A stretch of DNA of 64,000 nt from Minisyncoccia bacterium (GCA_044229075.1 JBGATS010000002.1:40058-104057); one strand, 5' to 3'; counted from the first letter of the stretch, positions 3 to 33,615 are shown. Program-made: numbers and translations. The notes: generated by a model from the letters alone, not told the origin.

Positions 3-998
3 GGTATTGTTGCAGTACCTGATGAACGACTGTATAAACTTGCAGAATTTTCAAAAACGAACAAAATAATTCCAGCAGCGATCGAATTTGTAGATATTGC
101 AGGACTGGTTGCAGGTGCCAGTAAAGGTGAAGGACTGGGAAACAAGTTCCTGTCACATATTCGTGAGGTAGATGCGATACTTGAAATGGTGCGCATTTTT
201 CCGGTTGCTGGTGGTGGAACGATGATTAATCATGTGTATGGCGATATGAATCCAATGCGTGACATTGGTGTTATTAATTTGGAACTAATTTTAGCGGATC
301 TTGAAACGGTTACAAAACGTGCATCAAATATCGTTCGCGAGGTAAAGCAGGGAAACAAGACTGCAATTCTGGAACAGTCTATTATAGAAAGATTTTTGAA
401 AGCACTACAAGATGAAAAAATGGCGAACACAGTAGAGCTGACCGAGGATGAAGAAAAAATTGCAAAGCAGTTGAATCTGTTAACACGGAAAAAATTTATC
501 TATGGTTTAAATAAACGCGCAGGCGCAGAAAATCTTGATCAATCAAATCCAGAAGAATTTAAAAAGGTATGTAAAGCAATAGAAGAAATGGGCTCAGAAT
601 GGGTGATTATCGACGCAAAGGTTGAACACGAGTTATCAGAATTCGAAGGCGATGAAAAAGCAGAAATGCGCGCGATGTTACAAGCCGATACAGAGGCTGA
701 CGATGGAATTAATACGTTAATTATAAAATCATATACACTGCTTAGACTTGAAACGTATTTCACAACAGGAGAGGTTGAAACCCGCGCATGGACGATTGCA
801 AAAAATTCGACCGCACCAGTTGCAGCGGCTGCGATTCATACCGATTTTCAGACAAAGTTCATCCGGGCAGAGGTAGTATTTTGGTCAGATTTATTGAATG
901 CGGGATCATTTGCCAATGCAAAATCAGCAGGACTGGTTCGAACAGAAGGGAAGGAATACATTGTAAAAGATGGTGACGTGATGGAGTTTAAGATATAA
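3..998 (+). CDS. ychF: Ribosome-binding ATPase YchF (Obg-family GTPase), 5'-truncated by window edge
   Basis: Frame-3 translation from nt 3 reads GIVAVPDERL...FVDIAGLVAGASKGEGLGNKFLSHIREVDAI. C-terminal TGS-like region ends ...DGDVMEFKI at 998. These are typical YchF motifs. Confidence 0.85.
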   Translation, partial: GIVAVPDERLYKLAEFSKTNKIIPAAIEFVDIAGLVAGASKGEGLGNKFLSHIREVDAILEMVRIFPVAGGGTMINHVYGDMNPMRDIGVINLELILADLETVTKRASNIVREVKQGNKTAILEQSIIERFLKALQDEKMANTVELTEDEEKIAKQLNLLTRKKFIYGLNKRAGAENLDQSNPEEFKKVCKAIEEMGSEWVIIDAKVEHELSEFEGDEKAEMRAMLQADTEADDGINTLIIKSYTLLRLETYFTTGEVETRAWTIAKNSTAPVAAAAIHTDFQTKFIRAEVVFWSDLLNAGSFANAKSAGLVRTEGKEYIVKDGDVMEFKI

Positions 999-2064: not shown

Positions 2065-2577
2065 ATGAACGAGTCAAGTAAATTATACGTCTACCACGGA
2101 TCACATGAATTGTTTGATCTTGCGATTCCAAAAAGACAAGTTCGTAAAGGATTAAATCCCGATCCAAACGGAGAAAAATACATCACTGTATTTGATGATA
2201 TTTCATTTCATGCAACACCCTATAAATGGATTGCGTTAAATTATATATGTCAGTGCCAAAATATCTTATATCAAGGAAAAGAGTATTGGTATGCTACAGG
2301 TGTAGACTTGCGGGAATATAAAGAAGAAATTGAGATATACGGCGTTGAGTCTCTTGAGAAAAGTTTAGAAATATTATTTGGACAAGGTGGATATTTATTT
2401 ACGTTTGATGCAAAAGATTTCATCCATCAAGAAGGATTAGGAATTAACGAAGTAATTGCAAAATCACCAGTTACGCCAATCTCTGTAGAACGAATTGATG
2501 ATCCTGTATCTGAAATTAAAAAACTAGGAATACCTTTTATATTTAAAGATCTTACACTCCCAGAGAATAATTGGTAA
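2065..2577 (+). CDS. Hypothetical protein (possible divergent ART-PolyVal-like fold)
   Basis: 170-aa ORF immediately downstream of the previous gene. It begins KLYVYHGSHELFD, reminiscent of the vYHGT start of ART-PolyVal-type domains, and later has a QEG motif. This is weak. Confidence 0.3.
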   Translation: MNESSKLYVYHGSHELFDLAIPKRQVRKGLNPDPNGEKYITVFDDISFHATPYKWIALNYICQCQNILYQGKEYWYATGVDLREYKEEIEIYGVESLEKSLEILFGQGGYLFTFDAKDFIHQEGLGINEVIAKSPVTPISVERIDDPVSEIKKLGIPFIFKDLTLPENNW

Positions 2578-2601
2578 AACCTCGATTTATGCGAGGTTTT
2601 T

Positions 2602-2610
2602 TGGTATACT
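2602..2610 (+). promoter_or_regulatory. Extended -10 promoter element TGGTATACT (genome-wide recurring motif), about 9 nt upstream of ATG at 2620
   Basis: The same motif (TGGTATACT, TGATATACT, TGGTATAGT or TAGTATAC) recurs 7-18 nt upstream of many start codons. These include genes at 3483, 3810, 8030, 12193, 15031, 39869 and 60696, plus minus-strand murG and ftsZ. It is preceded here by a small terminator hairpin (cctcgatttatgcgagg). Confidence 0.55.
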
Positions 2611-2619
2611 AATTATGTT

Positions 2620-3429
2620 ATGAAAAAATCAATTATTTCGACATTATTTATCAGTTTGTTTGTATTATTAGGAGTTATGCATAGTGCGTTAGCATTATCA
2701 ATGGTTGAAGATAATCGGGCCAAACTAAAATGTATTGAAAATGGAGGTAGTTATTCGTTTAAAATTAGCTCACTTGATGCAGAAGGTAGTTGTACTTTCC
2801 CAGATGGTTCAGTTTGTGAGGAATGGGCATATTATGATGGAGTGTGTACGCCAAAAAAAGTAAATTCAATCAGTGACTTGCCTGCAACATGTGTTGCCGC
2901 ATTTGATGGGTGTAACTCATGTTCTAAAATTTCAGGCGGACAATGGGCATGTACTATGAAGGCATGCTTGAATCAATCAACAAGTCCTGCTGCATACTGC
3001 AAAAAATTTCAAACAACTAATCCTGATCCGATAGCGTGCCCAGCAATCTATGCGCCAGTATGTGGTGATATTAGTGATCGTGTACGATGCATTACAGCGC
3101 CATGTATTGCCGAAAGAACATACAGCAACGAATGCATGTTGAATGCTGATGGTGCAAAAAAGATATCAGATGGTGAATGTAAATCAGTTTCAACAAAACC
3201 GTCATTTTGCAATGCGACATATATCAAATTAGTTCGTGGATCTCGTGGTGACTATGTTCGTGGATTGCAAGAATATCTGCGTGATCAAGGATATAATCCT
3301 GGAACTATTGATGGTGTATTTGGTCGCCAAGTAGCTGCTGCAGTAAAAACATTTCAGAAAAATAACGGATTAGTTACTGATGGAGTTTTTGGAAAAGGAT
3401 CTAGGGCAAAAGTATGTGCAATGTTTTAA
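2620..3429 (+). CDS. Secreted Cys-rich protein with DUF333 (putative-hemolysin-like), Kazal-type inhibitor-like and peptidoglycan-binding (PG_binding_1) domains
   Basis: Signal peptide MKKSIISTLFISLFVLLGVMHSALA. The segment CIENGGSYSF...CTFPDGSVCEEWAYYDGVC matches the DUF333 pattern. The segment CPAIYAPVCG...TYSNECMLNADGAKKISDGEC matches the Kazal pattern. The C-terminal GLQEYLRDQGYNPGTIDGVFGRQVAAAVKTFQKNNGLVTDGVFG matches a PG-binding repeat. Confidence 0.6.
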   Translation: MKKSIISTLFISLFVLLGVMHSALALSMVEDNRAKLKCIENGGSYSFKISSLDAEGSCTFPDGSVCEEWAYYDGVCTPKKVNSISDLPATCVAAFDGCNSCSKISGGQWACTMKACLNQSTSPAAYCKKFQTTNPDPIACPAIYAPVCGDISDRVRCITAPCIAERTYSNECMLNADGAKKISDGECKSVSTKPSFCNATYIKLVRGSRGDYVRGLQEYLRDQGYNPGTIDGVFGRQVAAAVKTFQKNNGLVTDGVFGKGSRAKVCAMF

Positions 3430-3770: not shown

Positions 3771-3809
3771 ATATCGATTTTTTGAGGGTTTTTTGGTATA
3801 GTGAACTAT

Positions 3810-4400
3810 ATGAAATTTGATAATCCTCCGAAAATTGAAAAAACAATAAGTTCTAAAGATTATAAGGAAATTATAGAAACACCTGAGTTCCAAAAATGGT
3901 TTTCTGGAAGTGTTGTTATAGATGATAAGGGTAATCCTTTGGTTGTATATCATTCTACTAATATCAAAAACTTTGAGGGTCAAAATCTTAAAAGAAATGA
4001 AAAAGCTAAGAAATGGAATTCTTTCGGTATATATTTCTCTTCTGATAAATATGCTACAAGAAATTTTTTTACTCAAGATTATATGGATTCAAAAGAGATA
4101 CTTGATAGGTTATTAAAATATGACTCAGAAGAAACAAAAGATATACAAAAAGATAAACAAGAATTTGAAGAAAAATATGAACCAATAACAAAAACATTTT
4201 CTTGTTTTCTGTCTATTAAAAATCCGTTATTACTTGATGATCATGAAGAACTCATAGAGTTATATTATTCGGGAACTACTTTTGATAAATTAAATGAAAA
4301 ATATGATGGAATAATTATTAAACACGATTCAGAATTTACCGATCAATACATTGTTTTTAATCCAGAACAAATTTATATGCTTCCATCTTTAATTAAATAA
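3810..4400 (+). CDS. Standalone ART-PolyVal-like (predicted ADP-ribosyltransferase-fold) protein
   Basis: FQKWFSGSVVIDDKGNPLVVYHSTN...FGIYFSSDKYA...FLSIKNPLLLD...YDGIIIKHDSEFTDQYIVFNPEQIYM follows the motif order recalled for the ADP-ribosyltransferase-like domain of phage polyvalent proteins. TGGTATAGT lies 7 nt upstream of the ATG at 3810. Confidence 0.4.
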   Translation: MKFDNPPKIEKTISSKDYKEIIETPEFQKWFSGSVVIDDKGNPLVVYHSTNIKNFEGQNLKRNEKAKKWNSFGIYFSSDKYATRNFFTQDYMDSKEILDRLLKYDSEETKDIQKDKQEFEEKYEPITKTFSCFLSIKNPLLLDDHEELIELYYSGTTFDKLNEKYDGIIIKHDSEFTDQYIVFNPEQIYMLPSLIK

Positions 4401-4405
4401 ACTAT

Positions 4406-7400
4406 ATGAAACCCTACGATCACAAAAAAATTGAAAAGAAATGGCAGAAGACTTGGGTAGATACTAATGTGTATAAAACACTCTCTGCAAAACAGGCTCG
4501 TGCTAAAAAACTCAAACCATATTATGTACTGGATATGTTTCCGTATCCGTCTGGTGCAGGTTTACATGTTGGTCATCCACGCGGATATATTGCATCCGAT
4601 GTTTTTGCGCGCATGAAACGCATGAGCGGTTTTAACGTATTGCATCCAATGGGATTTGATAGTTTTGGGCTTCCTGCAGAACAATATGCAATCAAGACTG
4701 GAAAAAATCCTGGACCATTTACTAATGAACTAGTAAAACGATACAAGGAACAATTGTCGATCCTTGGCTTTTCATATGACTGGAATCGTCAGGTTGCAAC
4801 ACATGATCCAGAATATTATCGATGGACACAGTGGATTTTCTTACAGATTTATAACAGTTGGTATGATAAGGAAAAGCAAAAAGCTCGACCGATTACAGAT
4901 CTTGAAAAAGAATTTGCGAAAAATGGAAATGAAAAAGTGAACGCAGTTTGTGATCAGAATACTCCGACTTTTTCAAAAACAGATTGGAAGAACTTTTCAG
5001 ATTTGGAAAAGCAAAACATGTTAATGAAATACCGATTGGCGTACGAGGGATATGCCGAGGTCAATTGGTGTGCAGAAATGGGAACCGTGCTCGCCAATGA
5101 TGAGGTGATCGAGGTAGATGGCAAAATGGTTTCCGAGCGAGGTGAATTTCCCGTTGAGAAAAAATCAATGCGGCAGTGGTTTATGCGCATTACTGCATAC
5201 GCTGATCGGTTAATTGATGGACTCGACGAAATCGATTGGTCAAACAGTATCAAGGAAATTCAACGGAATTGGATTGGAAAAAGTGAGGGAAGTGAGATTG
5301 AGTTCGGAATTGTCTCAGATAAAAAGACTAGGATCTTCGGTGAAAAAATTACGGGTTCCATTGAAAGAAGTATTGTAAAAGTTATATTAAGAAACAAAGA
5401 CGGAAAAATTCTCGTTCTCGATTCAAAAGGTTTCGGATTAGATCTTCCTGGAGGTGCGATTGAAAGCAATGAATCATTAGAAAAAACAGCAGTTCGGGAA
5501 CTTCAAGAAGAAACGGAATATACAAATTTTAGATTTGTAAAAAACATGAGTTCTGACTTTATTAACTACTATCACCTCAATAGACAACAGTATTTTCACG
5601 GAAAAATTCATGTACTTTTATATGATTTAATTAACGATGAAAAATCTATAAAAAATGTTCAGTCAGGAGAAAATGAAACCAAAGATAAATGGATTAACCC
5701 ACAAGAGTTATATGATATTTTTCCAAAAGATTCAGCTTATAAAACTGCTTTAAAGAAATCAATTTTTGATTATATAAGTATACAGAAAAATCAAATAACA
5801 GTATTCACAACGCGTGCAGACACATTATTTGGTGTGACCTATGTTGTGTTGGCGCCAGAGCATGATTTGGTTCAGCAATTAAAATCACACATTACAAACT
5901 GGGATGAAGTTGAACAATATATCGCATCAGTAAAATCAAAATCAGATGAAGATCGCACTGCAGCAAAAGAAAAAACAGGAATACAATTAGAGGGAATTTT
6001 TGCAGTAAATCCAGTAAGCGATGAGCAAGTTCCAGTATGGATTGCGGATTATATATTAGCTGGATATGGAACAGGAGCAGTGATGGCAGTTCCTGCGCAT
6101 GATGAACGAGACTTTGAGTTTGCACAGAAATATGATCTACCGGTTAAGCATGTTGTTTCCCGTGTTCTTGATTATAAGGATCATAAAGAAGGTGTTCCAC
6201 ATTTAGTACGAAAAACAGTTGATCCTATTATTCGTGATAAGGAAGGGAATTTTTATTTAATACGTGAAAGTGAAGAAGATGTACACTTCGCAGGAGGTGG
6301 GGTTGAGGAAGGAGAAAGTGATATAGAAACTGCTCGGCGTGAAATAATTGAAGAAACAGGATTTACGGATTTTATTATCGGCAACCCAATTAATCTTTAT
6401 ATTTCTGCAACAGGTTATAGAGCAGCAAAAAATAGAAATCAGACTGGGTATGGAACTGCATATGAAGTTGTATTAAATAGTACTCAGCAGATTCCATCAG
6501 AAATTGATCAAGGAATCCATACGGTAGTAAAGGTTTCAAAGGATGATGTCTTAAAATCAATCACATGGGAGCATCATCGTTGGATTTTTGAAGCGTATTT
6601 AAACGGACCAAAAGCTTTTACAGACGAAGGTTTACTTATCGACTCTGGTCAGTTTAATAATATGAATTCTACTGAAGCTCGCAAAGCAATTACGGAATTT
6701 GTTGGTGGGAAATTGGTTACTAAATACAAAATGCGCGATGCAATCTTTGCACGACAGCGATATTGGGGTGAACCGATTCCGTTAATCCATGAAAAAGACG
6801 GGCTAATTGAAGCAATTCCAGAGAAGCAACTTCCACTAACTCTTCCACCTGTCAAAAGTTATGCACCAAGTGGAAATGGTGAAGGGCCGCTTGCGACTGT
6901 AAAATCATGGGTGACTGCAGGCTACGAAACCAACACCATGCCGGGCTGGGCTGGATCATCATGGTATTTCTTGCGCTATACGGACCCAACGAACAAGAAA
7001 AAATTTGCAGATGAATCAGAACTTGATTATTGGTTTGGGAAAAATGGTGGGGTGAATATGTATGTCGGTGGTGCAGAGCATGCAACAGGACACCTCCTCT
7101 ATTCTCGTTTTTGGCACAAGGTCTTGAAAGATTTGGGATATGTAAAAACAGAGGAACCGTTCCAGGCATTGCGTAATCAGGGTATGATTGGTGGTGCCGA
7201 TGGACGCAAAATGTCAAAACGGTGGGGAAATGTGATCAACCCAGATGATGTGGTGCGTGATATGGGTGCTGATACATTGCGTGTGTATGAATCATTCATG
7301 GGACCATTTGATGCCCACCTACCATGGAGTATTGATGGTATTGCAGGCGCGCGACGATTTATTGAACGTATTTGGCGATTCCAAACTAAAGTTTCAAATA

Positions 7401-7876
7401 CAGTAAAGACTACCGAACATCTTGAGAAAGTTCTCCATAAAACAATCAAAAAAGTGAGTGAAGATATTCAAAACTTTGCGTTCAATACAGCAGTATCGTC
7501 CATGATGATTTTTGCAAACGAACTTGAAAAAGCAGAATCAATCAATATTGCTGATTTTAAAAAATTCCTCCAAATTCTCGCTCCGTTTGCACCACATATT
7601 ACGGATGAATTATGGGCAAGTCTTGGTGAGAAAAAATCAATTCATAGTGCATCATGGCCAACATTTGATCCAAAAAAGGTAATCGATACTACCATCACTA
7701 TCGGAATTCAAATCAATGGAAAAGTGCGTGCCGAAATAGAAATTAATCGCGAAGAGTCATCAGAAAACATACAATCAATAGTTTTGGCAATGCCAGAAAT
7801 TATCAAATGGATTGATGGAAAAGAAATAAAGAAATTTATTTATGTTCCAGGAAGGGTGATTAATATTGTTGTATAG
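4406..7876 (+). CDS. leuS: Leucyl-tRNA synthetase carrying two inserted NUDIX hydrolase domains
   Basis: Class I motifs are present: PYPSGAGLHVGHPRGY (HIGH), KMSKRWGN (KMSKS), and the CP1 marker TVFTTRADTLFGVTYVVLAPEH. The ORF is 1156 aa against about 820-880 usual. Extra segments at aa ~301-463 and ~585-740 each contain a canonical NUDIX box: GGAIESNESLEKTAVRELQEETEY and GGGVEEGESDIETARREIIEETGF. Confidence 0.9.
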   Translation: MKPYDHKKIEKKWQKTWVDTNVYKTLSAKQARAKKLKPYYVLDMFPYPSGAGLHVGHPRGYIASDVFARMKRMSGFNVLHPMGFDSFGLPAEQYAIKTGKNPGPFTNELVKRYKEQLSILGFSYDWNRQVATHDPEYYRWTQWIFLQIYNSWYDKEKQKARPITDLEKEFAKNGNEKVNAVCDQNTPTFSKTDWKNFSDLEKQNMLMKYRLAYEGYAEVNWCAEMGTVLANDEVIEVDGKMVSERGEFPVEKKSMRQWFMRITAYADRLIDGLDEIDWSNSIKEIQRNWIGKSEGSEIEFGIVSDKKTRIFGEKITGSIERSIVKVILRNKDGKILVLDSKGFGLDLPGGAIESNESLEKTAVRELQEETEYTNFRFVKNMSSDFINYYHLNRQQYFHGKIHVLLYDLINDEKSIKNVQSGENETKDKWINPQELYDIFPKDSAYKTALKKSIFDYISIQKNQITVFTTRADTLFGVTYVVLAPEHDLVQQLKSHITNWDEVEQYIASVKSKSDEDRTAAKEKTGIQLEGIFAVNPVSDEQVPVWIADYILAGYGTGAVMAVPAHDERDFEFAQKYDLPVKHVVSRVLDYKDHKEGVPHLVRKTVDPIIRDKEGNFYLIRESEEDVHFAGGGVEEGESDIETARREIIEETGFTDFIIGNPINLYISATGYRAAKNRNQTGYGTAYEVVLNSTQQIPSEIDQGIHTVVKVSKDDVLKSITWEHHRWIFEAYLNGPKAFTDEGLLIDSGQFNNMNSTEARKAITEFVGGKLVTKYKMRDAIFARQRYWGEPIPLIHEKDGLIEAIPEKQLPLTLPPVKSYAPSGNGEGPLATVKSWVTAGYETNTMPGWAGSSWYFLRYTDPTNKKKFADESELDYWFGKNGGVNMYVGGAEHATGHLLYSRFWHKVLKDLGYVKTEEPFQALRNQGMIGGADGRKMSKRWGNVINPDDVVRDMGADTLRVYESFMGPFDAHLPWSIDGIAGARRFIERIWRFQTKVSNTVKTTEHLEKVLHKTIKKVSEDIQNFAFNTAVSSMMIFANELEKAESINIADFKKFLQILAPFAPHITDELWASLGEKKSIHSASWPTFDPKKVIDTTITIGIQINGKVRAEIEINREESSENIQSIVLAMPEIIKWIDGKEIKKFIYVPGRVINIVV

Positions 7877-7894
7877 AAAATAGTATACAAAAAA

Positions 7895-7946
7895 TACAAA
7901 CAACAGAGGGGCGCCGCAGGCGCCCCCCCTTTTTTTTTGTTGTTTG
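7895..7946 (+). terminator. Rho-independent terminator after leuS
   Basis: A GC hairpin gaggggcgcc-gca-ggcgcccccc is followed by T9 and flanked by caaacaaca/tgttgtttg. Confidence 0.85.
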
Positions 7947-8029
7947 TATTATAGTGTTTTCAAAAAGACACATCTATCCACAGAATCAATCTTCCAAAAA
8001 TAGTAAAATAGGTTTATACTGGTGCGTAT

Positions 8030-10399
8030 ATGTTTAAAAAAATAACTCGTGGAATTTCTTCAGTAATTGGGCGTGGACTTACCTTCATAGCCCCAAAAAA
8101 AGAATCGTCATTTTTTTTTATTAGTCTTTTAGTACTCGTTGGAATCGTACTTTTAGGATTTATTCCTATGGCTGGAGTCAACGGACTTTTTGCAAAGAAT
8201 CTCCTCCTTCCATTTTTTGCAGGAGCAATGCTTATTCTTGTCGCAGGACAAGCCTTGAAACAGGGTGCTTTTACTCTCTTGGAACAAAAAAGCTCACTCG
8301 TGATTGGTGGATCTTTACTTATAATGTTGATTGTATCTTTTTTTGCAGTTGCTCCAAAAACAGCACTTTTTGGATCTTTTGGTGAAACACCTTCATTTCT
8401 TTTATTGTTATCACTTGTTATTATCTTTTATGTTGCAGCTATCTCTTTTAAAAAATTCTCCCATACATTAGGACTGTTATTAGTGCTTGCAATGGTATAC
8501 AGTATTACCTTTCTCCATATAATTATTCGGATTATTTTTGGCCCCCAGATACTCTCTTTTGGATTCATGAACACTATTACAACAACGTTAATAGGGTCAT
8601 GGACAGATTTTGCAATCCTTTCAATGATTATTATGGTATTAGGGGTTATCTGTTTTGAGGTTGGTAAATTTACTCGTCCAGCAAAAATAATAACAGGATT
8701 AGTCACCATACTTGGATTTTTAGGGATGGTGTTAGTTAATATGAAATGGATTTGGATTTTTGGTGGAGCTTCATTACTTGTGTTTTCAGTATATACATTT
8801 TCTTTAGCATATTGGGATCCAGAAAAAGAATCCTATGAATCAAGTAGAACTGTTCCATGGTTTACTATTCTATTATTTATTGCAACATTAGTCGGACTTA
8901 TTTTCGGGAGTTTCGTTACTCAATTTATTGGTAATTATCGTTCAATTAGTTATCAAGAAGTGTATCCAAGTATTCCAGCAACTTTTCAAGCAACAGTAAA
9001 AGGTTTTACAGAACGACCACTTACAGGAACCGGGTTGGGTGATTTTGATCATTTATGGAATCTTGTAAAACCTGTGCAACTTTCAGGTACTCATCCAGGG
9101 TCTCTCGAGTTTGCAAGTGGATATAGTTTTGTCACAACAGTTATTGCAACTACAGGAGTTTTAGGAATATTTGCTATTATAGCACTGTTTGGAATCTTCT
9201 GTATTCGTATTGTACGTGTTATCAAAAAAGAATTTTCGAGTATCCATTCTCGGTTTATGATTACACTTACTATTGCAGGCGCAGTAATGACATCATTAGT
9301 ATTATTAATTGATTACCCAGGAACAAGCATTATGCTCATTTGGACTGTTTTTATGGGGTCATTGTGGGGAATCCATCATGATAGAGAAGAGAAAAAACTT
9401 TCATTTGTTCATGATCCTCGAACAAGTTTCTTTGGGATGATTGTTATTGTTCTCTTGGTAGCTGTAGGTGCTATGTCCATGTATATCAGTATTCGCAAAA
9501 CAGTATCAATAGTTTCCTATAGTACATCGTTACAATTACTTGCACAGAATAACATTGATGCAGGAGTTGCAAAATTAGTACAAGCAAATCAACTATGGTC
9601 GAGTGATTTTTATCATCGAGCATTAGCAAATCAAGTTCTTGCACAGGTTCGTGTGTTGGGGAATCAGCCAGGTATTTCAAAGGAAGTACTCGGGAAAGAA
9701 GTAGAACGTATTTTATCACTAGGTGTTTCATATGCAAACGCTGCAACTACTGCTGATCCGAATAATTACCGCAACTGGACAATGTTGGGTAATGTATATC
9801 AGTTCTTTGGGAACCTCCAGGTTGAAGGTGCTCTTGAAAAAGCGCGATCAGCATATACCAAGTCATCACAGCTTTCACCAAACGACAGAACATTGGATAT
9901 TTTATTTGCAAATAATTACCTTTCTTCTGGTGATAAAACAACTGCAACGTCATTGATCAATGATTCAATTAAAAAATATCCAACCCAAGATGCGTATACA
10001 TGGCTCTATCAACAAGATATTTCTGAAAAATCTTTTGATAAGGCTGCGCAAAATTTAGTTAATGCAATTAGTCTGGATATTACTAACTATGGACTCATTA
10101 ACGAGTTTGGTATATTAATGTTTGCCCAAGGAAACTATCAAGAGGCAGCAACTGCCTTCGAGCAATCATTGTCCGTATATCGACTGCAACCAGTAGTGTT
10201 TGCGTATCTCGGTGTATCATACGAATCTCTTTCTAAAACAGAACAGGCAGAACAAGTTTTTGCATTCCTGAGAAAAGAACTTCCTGACAATGCTGATACA
10301 TTTATCGATCAAGCGAGAAAGCAAAAAGGATCACTCTCGACACAAGTAATACCTCAAATACAAACACCAACTGAATCTATTATTCCCGTGTCTCAATAA
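8030..10399 (+). CDS. Polytopic membrane protein, O-antigen ligase/polymerase-like, with C-terminal TPR-like repeats
   Basis: More than 10 predicted TM helices are followed by a soluble C-terminal region with TPR-like A/Y/L periodicity (NYRNWTMLGNVYQFFGNLQVEGALEKARSAYTKSSQL...). TTTATACT lies 8 nt upstream of the ATG. Confidence 0.4.
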   Translation: MFKKITRGISSVIGRGLTFIAPKKESSFFFISLLVLVGIVLLGFIPMAGVNGLFAKNLLLPFFAGAMLILVAGQALKQGAFTLLEQKSSLVIGGSLLIMLIVSFFAVAPKTALFGSFGETPSFLLLLSLVIIFYVAAISFKKFSHTLGLLLVLAMVYSITFLHIIIRIIFGPQILSFGFMNTITTTLIGSWTDFAILSMIIMVLGVICFEVGKFTRPAKIITGLVTILGFLGMVLVNMKWIWIFGGASLLVFSVYTFSLAYWDPEKESYESSRTVPWFTILLFIATLVGLIFGSFVTQFIGNYRSISYQEVYPSIPATFQATVKGFTERPLTGTGLGDFDHLWNLVKPVQLSGTHPGSLEFASGYSFVTTVIATTGVLGIFAIIALFGIFCIRIVRVIKKEFSSIHSRFMITLTIAGAVMTSLVLLIDYPGTSIMLIWTVFMGSLWGIHHDREEKKLSFVHDPRTSFFGMIVIVLLVAVGAMSMYISIRKTVSIVSYSTSLQLLAQNNIDAGVAKLVQANQLWSSDFYHRALANQVLAQVRVLGNQPGISKEVLGKEVERILSLGVSYANAATTADPNNYRNWTMLGNVYQFFGNLQVEGALEKARSAYTKSSQLSPNDRTLDILFANNYLSSGDKTTATSLINDSIKKYPTQDAYTWLYQQDISEKSFDKAAQNLVNAISLDITNYGLINEFGILMFAQGNYQEAATAFEQSLSVYRLQPVVFAYLGVSYESLSKTEQAEQVFAFLRKELPDNADTFIDQARKQKGSLSTQVIPQIQTPTESIIPVSQ

Positions 10400-10414
10400 A
10401 TTTTTTAATACAAT

Positions 10415-12106
10415 ATGATTAAGCGCGTCCTCTCAATGATATATAATCGATCATCAGGCATCAATGAGGCCGCTTTTTTGTTGGGATTATTTACACTTGT
10501 TTCTCAATTACTTGGTCTGGTACGAGATCGATTACTCGCAACCTATTTGGGGGCGGGGACACAATTGGATGTGTATTATGCAGCGTTCAAGATCCCTGAT
10601 TTCTTATTCGTTTCTATTGCATCACTTGCATCGATTACTGTTTTATTACCATTTCTTTCGCAAAAATATAAAGATGGAGATAGTAATAATTATCGAGAGG
10701 CAAAATTATTTTTTGATCAAGTGTTTACGGTACTTCTCGTATTTTTGGTTGGAGTGAGTGTTATCTTGTTTTTTATGATGCCATTTCTTGCAAAAATCGT
10801 TGCTCCTGGTTTCACTAGTGAACAAACACAAACTCTTGTAATGCTTTCTCGAATTATGTTGGTACAACCAATTATTATTGGTGTGTCTAATATGGTGTCG
10901 AGCGTAACCCAAATGTTTAAAAAGTTTTTTATCACTGCTCTTTCCCCAGTTCTTTATAATATTGGTATTATTCTCGGAATTATTTGGTTGTATCCATTGA
11001 TAGGTATTACTGGGCTCGCATACGGAGTTATTATTGGGGCACTATTTCACTTTGTTATTCAGGTGCCGACCCTTTATTCCATTAAATTTTTCCCACGATT
11101 TGCACGTAATATCGACTGGAGAGAGCTATTGATTATTATAAAAACCTCTATTCCACGCACACTGGGGTTGTCTATGTCCACCATTACTGCGCTCGTCCTC
11201 ACCTCTATTGCGTCCACGTTGGCTACAGGATCTATTTCGTTGTTTAATTTAACAAACAACATGTTAAATGTTCCTATCGGAGTGGTTGCAATATCATATT
11301 CTGTTGCGTCTTTTCCTGTGTTAGTGAAATTTTTTCATGATCAAGATCGCGATAAATTTGTAGCATATATAATTAATGCAACTCGGAAGATTATATTTTT
11401 TTCGGTTCCGATCACAGTTCTTTTTATCGTTTTGCGGGCCCAGATTGTTCGTGTTATTTTGGGCTCTCAATCATTTTCATGGAATGATACCCGATTAGCA
11501 GCGGCGTCACTTGCATTGTTTGTTATCGGACTCGTTGCACAAAGTTTAGTGCATCTATTTGTCCGCGGATACTATGCAGCAGGGAATACACGTAAACCGC
11601 TCTTGATGAATTTTTCTGGGGAAGTTATTACAGTACTATTAGCTTTTGTATTCATTGGTCTCCTCCGGGATGGACCTCTCTATATCTTTTTTGTGAATAC
11701 GCTACGATTAACCGGAATTAGCGATATCACCTTACTTGCATTACCGCTTGCATTTTCTATAGGAAATATTTGTAACTATCTATTATTATTATGGGTATTC
11801 AGAAAAGATTTTCCCGAAGCAAAGAATTTTTCTCTTCAAAAAACAACCATGCAAACTATTTTTGCATCACTGATAATGGGAGGCATTTCCTATGGTATTT
11901 TGAACCTACTACCACAAGTAATTCGTCAGGAAACGTTTGGGGGAATTTTCTTGCAAGGGTTACTCGCAGGATGTATGGGAATGGTTGTGTTTGTTATTGT
12001 AATGATGGCAATAGGGAACGAGGAAATGATGGAATTTACCAAAACTGTCCGTCGCAAATTCTGGAAAGCGAATGTGGTAATTGATCAGAGCGCGATTGAT
12101 AATTAA
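10415..12106 (+). CDS. murJ: Lipid II flippase MurJ (MviN)
   Basis: N-terminus AAFLLGLFTLVSQLLGLVRDRLLATYLGAGTQLDVYYAAFKIPDFLF and about 14 TM helices, as is typical of MurJ. Confidence 0.85.
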   Translation: MIKRVLSMIYNRSSGINEAAFLLGLFTLVSQLLGLVRDRLLATYLGAGTQLDVYYAAFKIPDFLFVSIASLASITVLLPFLSQKYKDGDSNNYREAKLFFDQVFTVLLVFLVGVSVILFFMMPFLAKIVAPGFTSEQTQTLVMLSRIMLVQPIIIGVSNMVSSVTQMFKKFFITALSPVLYNIGIILGIIWLYPLIGITGLAYGVIIGALFHFVIQVPTLYSIKFFPRFARNIDWRELLIIIKTSIPRTLGLSMSTITALVLTSIASTLATGSISLFNLTNNMLNVPIGVVAISYSVASFPVLVKFFHDQDRDKFVAYIINATRKIIFFSVPITVLFIVLRAQIVRVILGSQSFSWNDTRLAAASLALFVIGLVAQSLVHLFVRGYYAAGNTRKPLLMNFSGEVITVLLAFVFIGLLRDGPLYIFFVNTLRLTGISDITLLALPLAFSIGNICNYLLLLWVFRKDFPEAKNFSLQKTTMQTIFASLIMGGISYGILNLLPQVIRQETFGGIFLQGLLAGCMGMVVFVIVMMAIGNEEMMEFTKTVRRKFWKANVVIDQSAIDN

Positions 12107-16825: not shown

Positions 16826-17539
16826 TCATAGAGTACCTGCAAGAGCTTGTTCATTAAAATGCGCAAGTCTATGAATTCGTCCAAAGATAATTACTACAAT
16901 TAACCCAATAAACCATAATCCCGAAAGACTAATAATAATACTCCGTGTAGTATTAATCATAATAAAGTAATTGAAAATTGCATGGAGTCCAATAGCAAGT
17001 CCTAGTCCGAATACTGCATGCACCCATTTCATAAACGCGGTTTCATAATAAGCAATTCCCAACATAATACCTACAATAGCAACACAGATTGTATGAAGGA
17101 GTGTTGCACCAATAAATCGTAGATTACTGGCGAAGAGAAATGCACTGATTGGGCCTGTGGAAGGCTCAATGAGGTAGAGCGTATTTTCCAACCCCGAAAA
17201 ACCAAGTGCTAGGGTAATAAGATACAATGCATAATCTGTCGGTTTTGTAATACGATATACAGAGAAAGAAATGAGTGCGGTTACAATTACTTTGATAACT
17301 TCTTCAATGATTGCGAATGCTAATACGTACTCTTTTTGATCAAGATTTGTCAGGAGTATTACATGACTCAATGGGAAGACAAGGAACACACACACCATCC
17401 CCATGATATAGAGAAAAGATAAAAAACCCGTTTGTACAGGTTTTTTATCTTGTGAAAACCAGAACCATAACCACAAAAAAGTAGGAATAATTCCCCCAAC
17501 AATTGCCCATAATAACATTTCTGGTTTTATACCGGCCAT
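16826..17539 (-). CDS. PrsW-family intramembrane protease
   Basis: Polytopic protein with the PrsW signature motifs EEVIK (EExxK), FSGLENTLY, HTICVAIVG and HAIFNYF. Confidence 0.6.
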   Translation of the reverse strand: MAGIKPEMLLWAIVGGIIPTFLWLWFWFSQDKKPVQTGFLSFLYIMGMVCVFLVFPLSHVILLTNLDQKEYVLAFAIIEEVIKVIVTALISFSVYRITKPTDYALYLITLALGFSGLENTLYLIEPSTGPISAFLFASNLRFIGATLLHTICVAIVGIMLGIAYYETAFMKWVHAVFGLGLAIGLHAIFNYFIMINTTRSIIISLSGLWFIGLIVVIIFGRIHRLAHFNEQALAGTL

Positions 17540-20250
17540 GACTCTATTATAAGCAATTTTTGCGATTTTGTCTTGTCTTTTTCAGTATAGAGCATACTCC
17601 AAATTTCCTCGGTAATGAACGGCATAAACGGGTGGAGAACCTTGATCAAGGTGACCAAGTGTGTACGGAGCGTCCATTGTGCGCTGACTTTATTTCGATG
17701 CTCTGCAATTTTTACCTTTGATCGTTCTAGGATATTACTCGCAAATGTGTCCCAAAAATAATGATAGAGTTTTTCAGAAACCAGATAGAATTTATACTCT
17801 GACATTTCCTTGGTAATTTCAGTAATAAACGCATTCAATGCATCAATAGATTGCCTGTCTTCTGTATCATATTCAGGTTTCTGATCAAGATCTAAATCAT
17901 AAGTTTGTTCCATGACGAATCGTGTCGCGTTCCAGATCTTGTTTGCGAATTTTGAATAGGCTTTTATTTTCTCCTCGGTCATCGTGGTTGGCTGTCCTGG
18001 TCCGACGCCGACAATCATCGACATACGCAGTGCGTCTGCGCCGTGTTTTGCAATCGTTTCGAGCGGATCAATAGCAGTCGCAGGGTTTGATTTGCTCATT
18101 TTCTTTCCATTTTTATCCAACACCATTCCGTGCAAATAAACAGTTTTAAAGGGTACCTCGTCGAGTAAATATCGCGACATCAAGATCATACGTGCAACCC
18201 AAAAGAATATAATATCGTTTCCTGTTTCCAGTACTGATGTTGGGTGATAGGTTTTTAAATCTGATGTATGTTCAGGCCAACCAAGCGTTGAAAATGTCCA
18301 TAGTCCTGATGAAAACCATGTGTCGAGCGTGTCAGAATCTTGAGAAAGATTTTCACCTTTGGGATTTATAAAAATAGGGAATTCAGTAATACTTGCATTA
18401 TCTACACGCCATTTTTTTCGGAATGCAACAAGATCATATTCTTCTTCAAGAACGGCTTTCATTACTGCAGAAAATGTAGCATGTCCCACAATTAAGATGT
18501 CACCATTACTTGCGTCATTATGGATAATTTCCCAAGCACGCTTTGCACGAGCGATCAGTTCATCCTGGGTTTCACCAGTTTTATCATTGAAAGCTGCCAT
18601 CAGTATAGGAATTTTTCTACTAGGAGTACCTTCAACACTTCCGCCATTGATTTCACGAAACTCAGGAGAAGTTTCAATATCAAGTCCCAACGTATCAGCA
18701 ATTATTTTTGCAGTATCATGAGCGCGCGAAAGGTCTGAAGAGAATATTTTAGTAATATTTTTATCTTTCAATAATTTAGCTGTAGTTTTCGCTTGCTCAC
18801 GACCTTTGTCGGTAAGTGGTGTATCATTTTGACCAGCATATATATGCGCAGCATTTGCTTCTGATTCGCCATGGCGGACTAAAATAATGTTTCGCTTTTT
18901 TTGCAAATGGATATTATTATTTTTGTCATACCAAACAGGAATCCGATGTCCGTACCAAATTTGTCGGGAAATACACCAATCGCGTAGGTTTTCGATCCAA
19001 TGAAAATAAACCTTTTCAAATTGTGCTGGCATTATTTTAATATCACCATTACGCACTGTTTCGATCATGAGTTCTTTCAATGATTTATTATTGCGTGCAG
19101 GAATTTTCTTGTTCACATCAACGAACCACTGCAATTTTGGTAATGGTTCAATAATTCCTTTTGACCGTTCTGCGATAGAGACATTTTGTTTTACCGTTTC
19201 TTCTTTCTCGAGTAATCCTTCAGTTCTCAAGTATTCAATAACTACTTCACGCGCCTCGGTTGTTTTCTTGCCTAATATAGTTTCGTCACCAACCGTCATT
19301 TTTGCAAATTCGTTGATTACAGGTTTTACCTCGAGTCCGTGACGCTGTGCAATATCCCAGTCGATTTGACTGTGTGCAGGTGTCACACCCAGGGCGCCTG
19401 TTCCAAATTCTGGTTCGACAGATTCATCAGTAATAATTTTGATTGAAAGTGGAACACCACAAAAAACACCTTCGTATGTTTTTCCTACGAATTCTTTATA
19501 ACGTGCATCATTAGGATGAACCGCTACGGCAACATCACCAACCTTTGTCTCGGGTCGGGTAGTAGAAATGGCAACAGGGAAGTCTTTCCAATATTTGAAG
19601 GTATATAATAGTGCATCGCGTTCCTCGTGATCAATTTCATCATCTGAAATAACCGTCTGACCTTTTGGATCCCAGTTTACAATTTTATATCCACGATAAA
19701 TCAATCCGTCATCATACATTTGTTTGAACGCGGTGTTTACGGCAACCGATCTTTTTCCATCCAATGTAAATGCTTCACGTGACCAATCAACAGATGCGCC
19801 CATTTTGCGTACTTGGCTCACAATGGTGTCATGGGAATTTTGTGCGAATTCGTTTACTCGTTTCAAAAATTCCTCGCGGCCGAGATCTTGTTTACGGATT
19901 TTTTCTTTTTCAAGATTTTTTTCTACAATGGTTTGGGTGGCAATGGCTGCATGATCGGTTCCTGGGAGCCAGAGCGTTTTTTTGCCTTGCATACGTGCAA
20001 ATCGTGTCATGATATCCTGGATCACCAACATGAACGCATGTCCGGTATGTAATGTTCCGGTTACATTGGGTGGTGGTAGTACTATCGAAAATGGCTCTGC
20101 GCTTACATCAGTAACTCCTTTTTCAATACAAATATCTGGATTAAAAAATCCAGATTCTTCCCAAGTTTTGTAGATAGATTCTTCAACTTCAGAGGCATTA
20201 TACGGTTTTAATAATTTTTCAGGAACATTTGCCTTGTTTTCAAAAGTCAT
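17527..20250 (-). CDS. valS: Valyl-tRNA synthetase carrying an inserted histidine-phosphatase (PGAM-like) domain
   Basis: PPPNVTGTLHTGHAF (HIGH), KMSKSNPATAIDP (KMSKS), CISRQIWYGHRIPVWY and TLDTWFSSGLWTFSTLGWPE are present. Between the last two motifs, about 190 extra aa contain ILVRHGESEAN...GQNDTPLTDKGREQA...IFSSDLSRAHDTA...ILIVGHATF. These are the RHG catalytic motif plus the second conserved His of the histidine phosphatase superfamily. Confidence 0.9.
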   Translation of the reverse strand: MTFENKANVPEKLLKPYNASEVEESIYKTWEESGFFNPDICIEKGVTDVSAEPFSIVLPPPNVTGTLHTGHAFMLVIQDIMTRFARMQGKKTLWLPGTDHAAIATQTIVEKNLEKEKIRKQDLGREEFLKRVNEFAQNSHDTIVSQVRKMGASVDWSREAFTLDGKRSVAVNTAFKQMYDDGLIYRGYKIVNWDPKGQTVISDDEIDHEERDALLYTFKYWKDFPVAISTTRPETKVGDVAVAVHPNDARYKEFVGKTYEGVFCGVPLSIKIITDESVEPEFGTGALGVTPAHSQIDWDIAQRHGLEVKPVINEFAKMTVGDETILGKKTTEAREVVIEYLRTEGLLEKEETVKQNVSIAERSKGIIEPLPKLQWFVDVNKKIPARNNKSLKELMIETVRNGDIKIMPAQFEKVYFHWIENLRDWCISRQIWYGHRIPVWYDKNNNIHLQKKRNIILVRHGESEANAAHIYAGQNDTPLTDKGREQAKTTAKLLKDKNITKIFSSDLSRAHDTAKIIADTLGLDIETSPEFREINGGSVEGTPSRKIPILMAAFNDKTGETQDELIARAKRAWEIIHNDASNGDILIVGHATFSAVMKAVLEEEYDLVAFRKKWRVDNASITEFPIFINPKGENLSQDSDTLDTWFSSGLWTFSTLGWPEHTSDLKTYHPTSVLETGNDIIFFWVARMILMSRYLLDEVPFKTVYLHGMVLDKNGKKMSKSNPATAIDPLETIAKHGADALRMSMIVGVGPGQPTTMTEEKIKAYSKFANKIWNATRFVMEQTYDLDLDQKPEYDTEDRQSIDALNAFITEITKEMSEYKFYLVSEKLYHYFWDTFASNILERSKVKIAEHRNKVSAQWTLRTHLVTLIKVLHPFMPFITEEIWSMLYTEKDKTKSQKLLIIESWPV

Positions 20251-30271: not shown

Positions 30272-32200
30272 ATGAAAAATAAAATTCTAAATTTCGTCAA
30301 AATAACTGGAGTTTTGTTGCTTTTATTTGTAACATTTCTTTCACAGTTATCATTTACAGTATCCAAGTATATTGGGATACCTCCTAACCATGAGGCAGGG
30401 TCAGGAACATCTGCATGTGTAGAATATGAAATAGATGGAAAAATTTATCGAAACTATTCATCTGAAGCCATAAAGCTATATAATCTTGATTCTTGCAGAG
30501 TAGGAATACATTTGCCTGGATATTTTAATCCAAGTAATGGAGAAACAAGTCCAATGAGTACGCATTTCCCTAAAAAAGATATTCAATTTTGTTTCAAGTA
30601 TGTTGAATATATCTTACCTGTACAAGTAAGAGTTCCAACAAGAAAAAACCAAAAGGATTACTCTTTTAGGGTCATGGGAGTATCTGCTCCTCAATGGGTT
30701 TCAACTGGGGGTACTTCTATAAGTTACGCACTTGATAGTCGAACACCTTTTAGCTTGCAAAATGCCCTAAGGCTTGCCGTACAAGACGCACAAAGATCAC
30801 AAAGTGTTTGGGGTCTTTCTAATTGGTCTGACCCTGAAAATCTTCATGACTCAGTATTTCTCATGAATTATTTTGAAGAAGAAAAAGAAAACTTCGTTCA
30901 AAGAATTCGTGAAATACAACCACATGTACTATTTATCGGATCAATGACACTTTCATTTCCTGGTGCAGTTCAAATTGCTAAACTAGCAAAACAAGAACTA
31001 GGTAATGTGTTCGTTGTTCTTGGCGGTAAACATGCTATTGAAACCATCTATTGGAAAGATAATCAAGTAAATCACCATCCCGCTTCGCCAACATTATTAA
31101 TGCAAAATAAGTCTATACCAGAAGTATTTGACTTAGTGGTATCGGGTGACGGTGAAGATGTTGTAAAATCTATTGGAGAGATATTAGGTCAAGAAATTGT
31201 AAATCAAAAATGTATTTTACCTTTTTCTGAATATCAAAATAGTTTTGAAAAAACAAAAGGTAATTTTATACTTACTTGGTTTGAGGATGGGAAAATTAAA
31301 AGTTTTACTAAGCAAAAAAACCCACTTGAGCACGATCTACTTCCGTCACCAGTCTCTCTTTTTGGTGTAAATACATCTTTTCCTGTTTTTGGAAAAGAGT
31401 TTACAGCACATGTTTATAGTGACATGGGAAAAGGTTGCGTATTTAATTGTTTTTTCTGTTCCGAACGTTCTGCAATTAATGGTCCTATTGTGCAATCTGG
31501 TAGTCCGGCAAAAAGACTTTACACACAACTCAGAGATGCTTCTTTGCAAAATGATTCAATGAGTGCGTTTGTAGAGGATTCGATTTTACTTATGGGTTTA
31601 CCAAAACATTTAGATGAGTTTGTTTGTCTTCTTGAATCAAATCCTTTACCTATTGTATTTGGAGGTCAATTTACTATTGATAATTTACTTGATCCAAAGG
31701 TTCAGCCTTGTATTCAAAGATTATCTCAATTAGGATTAGTATATATTTATACTGGAATGGAAACTTCCAACGAAGAAATTGCCACAGAAATGAGTAAAAA
31801 CACCAAGAGGAAAGAAGGTTGGATTGAGCGAAACAAAAAAGCTGTCCAATTTGTAACAGATTTAGGCATTAAACACGGAGTAAGTATTCTTTGGGGATTA
31901 GGTGAGTCATCTCAAGATCGACAAAACCAACTTTCAATTATTGAAAGTTTCCAAAATAAATATAATAATCCTGTTTGTGTATCACCTAATTGGGCAACCC
32001 AACATCCTTTGTTTAATCAATCTCAGTTCATATACACTGATTGGGGTACTGATAAGGATAGTGATTACTTAAAATATTTCACGCAATTATTTGGAGAAGC
32101 TTCTGAAAGGTATTGTTTGAACAACATAAACCTTCCAGATACTAAAGAGTTAGAGTTTTTGATTTCAAAGTTTCGCCAATTAAATATTAAAAATATTTAA
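30272..32200 (+). CDS. Membrane-anchored B12-binding radical SAM enzyme (class B radical-SAM-like) with novel approx. 200-aa N-terminal domain
   Basis: N-terminal hydrophobic anchor ILNFVKITGVLLLLFVTFLS. A B12-binding-like segment HVLFIGSMTLSFPGAVQIAKLAKQELGNVFVVLGGKHA. The CVFNCFFC (CxxxCxxC) radical SAM cluster motif at about aa 390. Confidence 0.6.
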   Translation: MKNKILNFVKITGVLLLLFVTFLSQLSFTVSKYIGIPPNHEAGSGTSACVEYEIDGKIYRNYSSEAIKLYNLDSCRVGIHLPGYFNPSNGETSPMSTHFPKKDIQFCFKYVEYILPVQVRVPTRKNQKDYSFRVMGVSAPQWVSTGGTSISYALDSRTPFSLQNALRLAVQDAQRSQSVWGLSNWSDPENLHDSVFLMNYFEEEKENFVQRIREIQPHVLFIGSMTLSFPGAVQIAKLAKQELGNVFVVLGGKHAIETIYWKDNQVNHHPASPTLLMQNKSIPEVFDLVVSGDGEDVVKSIGEILGQEIVNQKCILPFSEYQNSFEKTKGNFILTWFEDGKIKSFTKQKNPLEHDLLPSPVSLFGVNTSFPVFGKEFTAHVYSDMGKGCVFNCFFCSERSAINGPIVQSGSPAKRLYTQLRDASLQNDSMSAFVEDSILLMGLPKHLDEFVCLLESNPLPIVFGGQFTIDNLLDPKVQPCIQRLSQLGLVYIYTGMETSNEEIATEMSKNTKRKEGWIERNKKAVQFVTDLGIKHGVSILWGLGESSQDRQNQLSIIESFQNKYNNPVCVSPNWATQHPLFNQSQFIYTDWGTDKDSDYLKYFTQLFGEASERYCLNNINLPDTKELEFLISKFRQLNIKNI

Positions 32201-33420: not shown

Positions 33421-33615
33421 CCTAACCCCTTTGGTTTTCCAAAGGATATGGTTGCAAAACTCGCTACAAGATAAAAACCCCATCATCAGGGGCTATTACT
33501 TGTAGCGAGTCGTATCGGGAAACTGGTACGGGTAACTTCGGTTACCGATGCCTTGGTGGTGGGATTTTTGTTTACCACCAAAATATTATTAACCATAAAA
33601 ACTCGCTACAAAAAT
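33421..33615 (+). other. Highly structured non-coding region (possible cis-regulatory RNA) upstream of the gene at 33616
   Basis: Direct repeat AAAACTCGCTACAA at 33456 and 33597. The inverted copy CTTGTAGCGAG at 33499 can pair with either. Hairpins ggtaac-ttcg-gttacc and ttggtggtggg...ccaccaa lie between. This gives alternative-pairing geometry. Confidence 0.4.

Follow-up and report, generated by a model that had tools for sequence, protein, structure and literature searches.

The leuS Locus and Its Encoded Synthetase

The 64,000-nucleotide stretch of DNA analyzed here, referred to as the window (Minisyncoccia bacterium, GCA_044229075.1, JBGATS010000002.1:40058-104057), contains a leuS gene for a leucyl-tRNA synthetase (LeuRS) in whose CP1 editing domain two NUDIX domains are nested in frame. 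An earlier note, made from the sequence alone, had placed the excess length of this 1156-aa open reading frame (ORF) in two discrete insertions, and alignment to relatives with empty insertion sites and to Thermus thermophilus LeuRS bore this out. The features of the locus are collected in Table 1. The whole protein scores 899.4 bits against the bacterial LeuRS model TIGR00396 (leuS_bact; cut-off 548.4), and the positions of its HVGH, KMSK, TTRADT, and PAHD motifs show almost no variation across 89 aligned relatives. An AlphaFold2 (AF2) model of the full-length protein has a mean pLDDT of 85.3 and a TM score of ~0.8 to both Escherichia coli and T. thermophilus LeuRS. Judged by their motifs, the synthetic and editing sites are intact. 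The protein is a canonical bacterial-type enzyme, very probably fully functional, of an ultra-small member of the Paceibacterota, within the Patescibacteria or candidate phyla radiation (CPR), a placement based on the names of its relatives and on the nearest metagenome-assembled genomes.

Like canonical LeuRS of known structure (E. coli, 4AQ7/4ARC; T. thermophilus, 1H3N/2BTE), the window enzyme combines the HIGH and KMSKS motifs with a CP1 domain bearing a Thr-rich motif and an editing Asp, and with anticodon-binding and C-terminal domains. Unlike them, it carries two NUDIX domains of ~155 aa each nested in loops of CP1, and it is without the leucine-specific domain (T. thermophilus residues 577-638; around aa 928-936 in the window protein). 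No solved LeuRS structure returned by a fold search has an extra domain at either insert position. The catalytic domain also holds ~60 aa (aa 150-209, nt 4853-5032) that are extra relative to T. thermophilus, a segment that is likewise present in the family consensus.

Table 1. Features of the leuS locus, the valS gene of the window, and domains inserted in related LeuRS proteins
Feature	Position (nt)	Residues (aa)	Strand	Remarks
leuS	4406..7876		+	uninterrupted ORF, 1156 aa; bacterial-type leucyl-tRNA synthetase
HVGH (class I HIGH motif)	4565-4576	54-57	+	motif search
Insert 1, NUDIX domain	5306..5794	301-463	+	in place of an 8-residue hairpin loop just before the Thr-rich motif (T. thermophilus residues ~235-242)
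Nudix box 1, GAIESNESLEKTAVRELQEETEY	5453..5521	350-372	+	fits GX5EX7REUXEEXGU except for E in place of the last G
CP1 editing-domain core between the inserts	5795..6157		+	PF13603, 196.7 bits; aligned to T. thermophilus LeuRS residues 242-364
TTRADT, Thr-rich editing motif	5807-5824	468-473	+	
PAHD with editing Asp	6092-6103	563-566	+	
Tract of recent horizontal exchange	6116..6745		+	site-2 cassette and short LeuRS flanks; 97-99% DNA identity to L003/L004
Insert 2, NUDIX domain	6158..6625	585-740	+	variable CP1 loop (T. thermophilus residues 364-375)
Nudix box 2, GGVEEGESDIETARREIIEETGF	6296..6364	631-653	+	perfect GX5EX7REUXEEXGU
KMSK (KMSKS motif)	7208-7219	935-938	+	motif search
ART-PolyVal ADP-ribosyltransferase-like gene	3801..4400		+	PF18760, 42.8 bits; GC 0.24-0.30; 5-nt gap to leuS
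valS with His_Phos_1 insert	17527..20250 (insert 18352-18921)	insert ~444-633	-	PF00300, 138 bits; ValRS of 906 aa
GNAT cargo				P0006/P0015
ASCH cargo				P0022/P0018
HAD cargo				P0037, L009
Ham1-like cargo				P0039/P0045/P0062/P0106
Alpha/beta-hydrolase cargo				P0096, L032
Site 3 inserts		after query aa ~795		P0017, P0026, P0085, P0018, P0038, P0046, P0102
Site 4 insert		after aa ~838		P0089

Two NUDIX Domains in the Loops of CP1

When aligned to T. thermophilus LeuRS, both inserts fall within surface loops of CP1. Searched as isolated segments against the Pfam NUDIX profile PF00293 (gathering threshold 21.1 bits), insert 1 scored 54.4 bits (E = 1.7e-14) and insert 2 scored 40.1 bits (E = 4.4e-10), in agreement with the NUDIX assignment of the earlier note. 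Its description of two textbook Nudix boxes holds in full for box 2; box 1 is present too, but its last Gly is replaced by Glu. The catalytic RE..EE residues of box 1 are nevertheless intact, and the same TEY ending recurs in two related leuS loci, L007 and L005. Three hallmarks of the NUDIX superfamily were found in the inserts, namely a profile score for each segment alone, a Nudix box with RE..EE, and an alpha/beta/alpha fold. Both inserts are, by fold or by profile match, complete NUDIX domains with an intact metal-binding catalytic core (REx2EE). Over insert 1 the AF2 pLDDT is only 34-60, a poor result that we ascribe to the ~3 sequences covering this segment in the alignment.

Insert 1 occupies a site that in relatives with an empty site, L002 and L003 among them, is a loop of 7-8 residues. 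Insert 2 starts ~20 residues past the editing Asp, at a site that spans 0-57 residues in relatives without a NUDIX domain there. The 120 LeuRS homologues nearest to the window protein all come from Patescibacteria/Paceibacterota; PF00293 is found in 86 of them, and a box-bearing insert of 150-175 aa lies exactly at site 2 in 79. Other LeuRS proteins contain up to three NUDIX domains. The Gly, Glu, RE, and EE positions of the box are conserved at 90% or more in these 79 site-2 cassettes and are invariant in 27 diverse cassettes, despite an identity of only 25-35% elsewhere between cassettes. The NUDIX protein of Enterococcus faecalis of known structure (2AZW, MutT/NUDIX) and related small Firmicutes proteins stand alone, with 146 aa in the case of 2AZW, whereas the window domains are nested in an enzyme; as the function and substrate of 2AZW are unassigned, no function can be transferred from it to the inserts.

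The two inserts are homologous, although only remotely so. Comparison of insert 1 with the site-2 family by hhalign identified a full-length homologue (99.7% probability, E = 2e-26, 121 aligned columns). A recent internal duplication giving rise to one insert from the other was considered and rejected, the identity between them being 36% over only 55 aa. A NUDIX domain at site 1 occurs only in the window, in L007 (90% amino acid identity), and in P0009/L005 (64%), and the GC content of insert 1 (0.28-0.31) is below that of the rest of leuS. An exhaustive search with insert 1 revealed no close donor, the best match (29% identical) lying in another LeuRS. The free-standing NUDIX gene that neighbors the L005 locus was likewise rejected as a source of the cassette, since no significant similarity was detected. 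Of the 19 long matches to insert 1 that were examined, 18 are LeuRS proteins or pieces of them, and these bear one to three NUDIX domains placed variously about CP1. The remaining match is a 515-aa triple-NUDIX protein (P0215) that may itself be a fragment, and no ValRS, IleRS, or MetRS was found among these 19. Inserts 1 and 2 have separate histories and appear to have been acquired independently.

An artefact, whether a chimeric assembly, an intein, or an intron that is removed, would explain the unusual gene without any biology, and we consider the chance of this negligible. The independent Logan assembly L001 matches the window at 100% identity across 5937 nt that take in both inserts, and a different Paceibacterota metagenome-assembled genome (MAG; L007, DAOLZR010000035.1) shows the same two-NUDIX layout, so the architecture is confirmed as real, and the misassembly that the earlier note wished to see excluded is excluded. 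Further MAGs and dozens of homologues share the architecture, and the reading frame is continuous and under codon-level purifying selection. With regard to inteins, which the note had likewise argued against, there is no HINT or intein Pfam match, and the junctions (F300|G301...Q463|I464) are not of the splice type Cys/Ser...Asn|Cys/Ser/Thr. Rfam detects no intron in leuS.

Selection, Optional Presence, and Exchange of the Cassettes

Codon comparisons indicate that both inserts are under purifying selection. The dN/dS ratio of insert 1 is 0.15 against L007 and 0.14 against L005, compared with 0.10-0.14 for the LeuRS body, and the site-2 cassettes of the window and L003 are separated by 12 synonymous substitutions and 2 non-synonymous ones; across the inserts the ratio is ~0.04-0.15.

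A further leuS locus, L002, is 97.0% identical to the window in DNA over positions 6688-11943 and encodes a TPR protein that is 98.9% identical, and is the same species as the window as judged by this local identity. Its leuS has no insert 1 and contains an unrelated 57-aa filler at site 2, so that both NUDIX domains are missing. The existence of such an allele within the species shows that the inserts are accessory and dispensable for LeuRS.

In addition to being optional, the cassettes move between genes. The leuS genes of L003 and L004 are only ~78% identical overall in DNA to that of the window, with a dS of 1.07-1.30 in the gene body versus 0.13 within the tract surrounding the site-2 cassette (Table 1), indicating that this cassette was recently exchanged between diverged leuS genes. 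Conversely, the window and L007 share insert 1 at 90% identity whereas their site-2 cassettes are only 22% identical. Pairwise comparison of the 79 homologues with a site-2 cassette (3081 pairs) showed practically no correlation between the identity of the hosts and that of their cassettes (r = 0.16), and between LeuRS bodies at least 90% identical the median identity of the cassettes is 28%. In this lineage the inserts behave as optional, horizontally swapped cassettes, with unrelated NUDIX domains, other small enzymes, or nothing in the same loops.

No terminal inverted repeats, flanking repeats, target-site duplications, or transposase were found at either insert. As intein and intron signatures are lacking as well, the simplest vehicle would be homologous recombination between the highly conserved LeuRS sequences on either side; cassettes would most likely spread and turn over in this way and not by transposition.

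Other Cargo in Related LeuRS Proteins

NUDIX is by far the commonest cargo, with up to three domains per LeuRS, and was found in no other synthetase among the matches examined. Site 1 is nonetheless a hotspot of insertion in general, since close relatives hold HAD, Ham1-like, ASCH, GNAT, alpha/beta-hydrolase, or DUF559 nuclease domains there, and further insertions occur at two other sites (Table 1). Some of the inserts in close relatives match no identifiable family, and some of these LeuRSs reach 1300-1400 aa.

In P0007, P0079, P0115, and P0157, site 1 holds in frame a DUF559/Vsr-like endonuclease domain (120 bits), which could act as a homing-type nuclease that helps to create or spread insertions there. 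Site-2 inserts of 132-138 aa with neither a Nudix box nor a Pfam NUDIX label were seen in P0008, P0021, P0025, P0027, and P0031. A scan of genomes with the whole protein yielded mainly generic LeuRS genes. Separately, at three loci on a Selenomonadaceae chromosome (L033, L057, and L059; OY782746.1), tblastn matches to LeuRS span 4.3-4.9 kb with a longest ORF of only ~830 aa, and leuS may be split, duplicated, or interrupted there.

Free-Standing CP1+NUDIX Proteins

The best matches to a profile of the site-2 cassette and its flanks are not synthetases but abundant free-standing proteins of ~275-306 aa from Lachnospirales and Bacilli (P0273-P0317). They consist of a minimized CP1 core with a NUDIX domain nested exactly at site 2 and with the Nudix box intact, while the editing residues are lost: TTRxDT is replaced by xxRP(D/E)L, and AHD by AHI or SHN. 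Their existence indicates that the CP1+NUDIX unit can occur without a synthetase, as a module. In four gut metagenome contigs (L086-L089) the CP1+NUDIX gene (6001-6855; protein of ~284 aa) lies at the edge of a serine-recombinase element whose integration has split a Zip gene, and in three of the four (L086-L088) the same element carries a prokaryotic viperin (2457-3188, 129 bits).

As in the trans-editing proteins AlaX and YbaK/ProX, an editing fold of an aminoacyl-tRNA synthetase (aaRS) is here found as an autonomous small protein. The Firmicutes CP1+NUDIX proteins differ from these in that the Thr-rich motif and editing Asp are lost, a NUDIX domain is nested within the fold, and the gene travels as cargo of a mobile element, all of which makes it unlikely that they function as deacylases. 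The family, unstudied so far, is common in human-gut Lachnospirales and is flagged here.

Possible Functions of the NUDIX Domains

At about even confidence, we favor the view that a canonical LeuRS hosts in its CP1 two independently acquired, exchangeable NUDIX domains that act as autonomous pyrophosphohydrolases on a scaffold. The domains would be Mg2+-dependent and would hydrolyze a free nucleoside-diphosphate-X compound, LeuRS would provide a constitutively expressed scaffold, and the NUDIX reaction would not be a step in either aminoacylation or editing. Our best single guess for the substrate, a tentative one, is Ap4A or another dinucleoside polyphosphate of that family, a side product that aaRSs make from aminoacyl-adenylate and ATP; clearing of Ap4A by the inserts, an idea of the earlier note, is plausible.

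A Tyr in the X-loop, ~16-18 residues past the box, marks ApnA hydrolases (Dunn, 1999, as summarized in PMC5389931). Such residues are present downstream of both boxes (Y388/Y389 at +16/+17 of box 1 and Y671 at +18 of box 2) and hint at dinucleoside polyphosphates. Other subfamily markers are missing: a conserved Pro at +14 to +18, as in ADP-ribose pyrophosphatases, is found neither in the 79 site-2 cassettes nor in insert 1, and the NADH pyrophosphatase motif SQPWPFPxS is absent from all 120 homologues. We also compared the inserts with characterized hydrolases of dinucleoside and diphosphoinositol polyphosphates (Mycobacterium tuberculosis Rv2985/MutT1, T. thermophilus Ndx1, human DIPP1/NUDT3, yeast DDP1, and Ap4A hydrolases). 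The identity to ApnA/DIPP-type enzymes is only 15-17%, and other NUDIX subfamilies score nearly as well; where ApnA hydrolases have a strict Tyr in the X-loop, the family of the inserts has Tyr or Phe. Membership in the ApnA group is only tentative.

Several observations weigh against autonomous pyrophosphohydrolases on a neutral scaffold, or against Ap4A as their substrate. The +18 column of the X-loop over the 79 site-2 cassettes is Tyr in 40 but Phe in 36, and LeuRS is not the main cellular producer of Ap4A. Among the matches examined, recurrent NUDIX cargo was seen in no synthetase but LeuRS, which hints at some connection particular to this enzyme for which a pure scaffold would not account, and the retention of a CP1 core without editing residues in the free-standing proteins suggests that the CP1 scaffold matters to NUDIX function. 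Finally, cassettes are replaced nearly at random even where the hosts hardly differ, a pattern that is uncommon in housekeeping enzymes and better known from conflict genes.

This last point leads to a serious rival, which we rate as possible but clearly short of probable, namely that the cassettes are related to biological conflict. They would form a variable repertoire under arms-race or frequency-dependent selection that shields leucine charging, or the cell as a whole, by destroying a nucleotide-based toxin, antibiotic, antiviral nucleotide, or signal, or would serve defence or counter-defence as effectors anchored to the translation machinery. The extreme turnover of cassettes, uncorrelated with host identity even between nearly identical LeuRS bodies, the variation in insert presence within one species, and the transfer of a cassette across a boundary of ~78% identity all fit this idea, as does the hypervariable slot upstream of leuS, with ART-PolyVal in the window, a 221-bit match to defence candidate PDC-S57 in L002, and a CdiA_C gene near the L005 locus. 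The viperin-linked element that carries the free-standing CP1+NUDIX relative is a further association of this kind. Furthermore, NUDIX domains are recognized exchangeable accessory modules of defence systems (PMC9226505), and aaRSs including LeuRS are targeted by small-molecule toxins (PMC5388404). Throughout, however, this support consists of guilt by association and of a population pattern, and frequent recombination among CPR bacteria with natural competence could yield mosaicism without an arms race. In PADLOC 2.0 the inserts match only the generic NUDIX candidate PDC-S07 (24.1 and 17.5 bits), ART-PolyVal is tied to leuS in one small clade and is absent upstream of other NUDIX-bearing leuS loci, and no candidate toxin or phage factor was found. 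A bolder version, in which CP1 of LeuRS, together with the homologous ValRS loop, is a docking platform for hypervariable, exchanged conflict cassettes, mainly NUDIX, and a CP1+NUDIX module escaped from it onto Firmicutes mobile elements, strikes us as doubtful.

Improbable, in our estimation, is an activity on RNA ends, by which NUDIX domains on CP1 would remove pyrophosphate, NAD, Np4A, or ADP-ribose-type caps or adducts from the 5' ends of tRNA(Leu) or other RNA, in the manner of RppH, YtkD, NudC, or Nudt16. The best NCBIfam matches of both inserts are indeed the YtkD RNA deprotection pyrophosphohydrolase and RppH, with insert 1 also weakly Nudt16-like, but these are weak and far below the family cut-offs (YtkD, for example, 27.7 bits against 154). 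CP1 binds the tRNA 3' end, which adjoins the 5' end, as seen in LeuRS-tRNA complexes such as 4AQ7 and 4ARC, and the CP1 core is kept in the free-standing proteins as if it were needed for substrate docking; the residues of the editing pocket, however, are lost in that form, and mature tRNAs carry a 5' monophosphate. The ADP-ribosyltransferase-like gene immediately upstream of leuS would also suit an RNA-end role.

The earlier note had proposed a built-in pre-transfer editing activity, and here the analysis points the other way. That the NUDIX domains hydrolyze non-cognate aminoacyl-adenylates, or otherwise join in LeuRS proofreading, is suggested by their location inside the editing domain and by their specific recurrence in LeuRS, yet we find it scarcely credible. 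An allele of the same species lacks both domains and NUDIX is absent from many close relatives; exchange of the cassettes does not follow the host enzyme, and the same loops accept chemically unrelated enzymes (HAD, Ham1, GNAT, and ASCH, among others). Since the canonical editing residues are intact, there is nothing for a NUDIX domain to replace. In addition, NUDIX enzymes cut pyrophosphate linkages and not the acyl-phosphate of an aminoacyl-adenylate (PMC5389931). If, at the opposite extreme, the inserts were functionless or selfish passengers tolerated in permissive loops, their dispensability within the species, the foreign origin suggested by the low GC of insert 1, and a homing-like spread driven by the DUF559 nuclease found at the same site in relatives would all be accounted for. 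We nevertheless judge this very unlikely, because the dN/dS of the inserts is equal to or below that of their essential host gene, the catalytic residues are invariant across highly diverged cassettes, and most members of a lineage whose genomes are strongly reduced have kept the inserts; moreover, NUDIX domains have no known mobility function.

Relation to Previous Work and Implications

In full-text searches of the literature we came across no account of NUDIX domains inside LeuRS, nor of their swapping as cassettes, and a 2017 review of the Nudix clan lists no tRNA-synthetase architecture. The earlier note, too, was aware of no NUDIX domains embedded in LeuRS. The arrangement is nevertheless widespread in LeuRS of Patescibacteria and already lies in public databases; as the sequences carry automatic Pfam labels there, it has been unremarked rather than unseen. 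The architecture also accounts for the NCBI name of the protein, which is only "class I tRNA ligase family protein." While the components are ordinary, their arrangement is not, being nested, multi-copy, hypervariable, and subject to horizontal exchange on an essential synthetase. A large survey of aaRSs counts LeuRS among the most evolutionarily stable synthetases (PMC5388404), and a 2026 survey of domain insertions describes PF13603 as only ever inserted, never acting as a host (PMC13114784). Here this same editing domain hosts one to three active-looking NUDIX domains and, in relatives, half a dozen other enzymes, with such rapid turnover that cassettes on nearly identical LeuRS bodies can be as little as ~25% identical.

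Should the modules act on by-products of the synthetase such as Ap4A, they would be an example of natural enzyme tethering in minimal genomes. A role in conflict would instead mean that an essential gene is used, in a new manner, to deploy variable modules for defence or detoxification, and, if CP1 were truly a docking platform for them, an essential and supposedly most stable synthetase would carry an immune-like variable region. The loops also offer natural permissive insertion sites for the engineering of LeuRS.

Grafted enzyme domains are known from other class Ia synthetases, such as the IleRS-GNAT fusion (NCBIfam NF040702), and the window itself contains a ValRS with a His_Phos_1 domain inserted in frame. 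The cargo of LeuRS differs from both in being nested inside CP1, which is itself an insertion, in occurring in one to three copies, and in being hypervariable and horizontally exchanged. The parallel with ValRS drawn by the earlier note is thus valid in that a hydrolase has been grafted (Table 1), but the insert, which replaces T. thermophilus ValRS residues 419-444 after WGHxIP, lies outside the editing domain, at a position homologous to site 3 of LeuRS. It is a generic CobC/GpmB-like phosphatase. A "split MutT1," with the NUDIX domain in LeuRS and its histidine-phosphatase partner in ValRS, was also considered and found no specific support, the C-terminal domain of MutT1 being only a weak match.

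Genomic Context

The slot immediately upstream of leuS, occupied in the window by the ART-PolyVal gene, contains the same type of gene in L003, L004, and L027, a T5orf172/MUG113 gene in L002 (the one that matches PDC-S57), and an unrelated 256-aa gene in L005, with the CdiA_C toxin-domain gene nearby. A general linkage between ART-PolyVal and the NUDIX inserts was rejected, as the association is confined to one small clade. Elsewhere in the window, a LOOT RNA (Rfam RF03000; 33419-33546, + strand) was detected a short distance upstream of an ORF at 33553-34128; it scores 88.3 bits, the gathering score being 46.4. Two further genes, for a B12-binding/radical-SAM-like protein with sub-threshold Pfam matches (30272-32200, + strand) and for a PIF1-family helicase with a C-terminal HTH_40 domain (58854-60545, - strand), represent ordinary genomic context.

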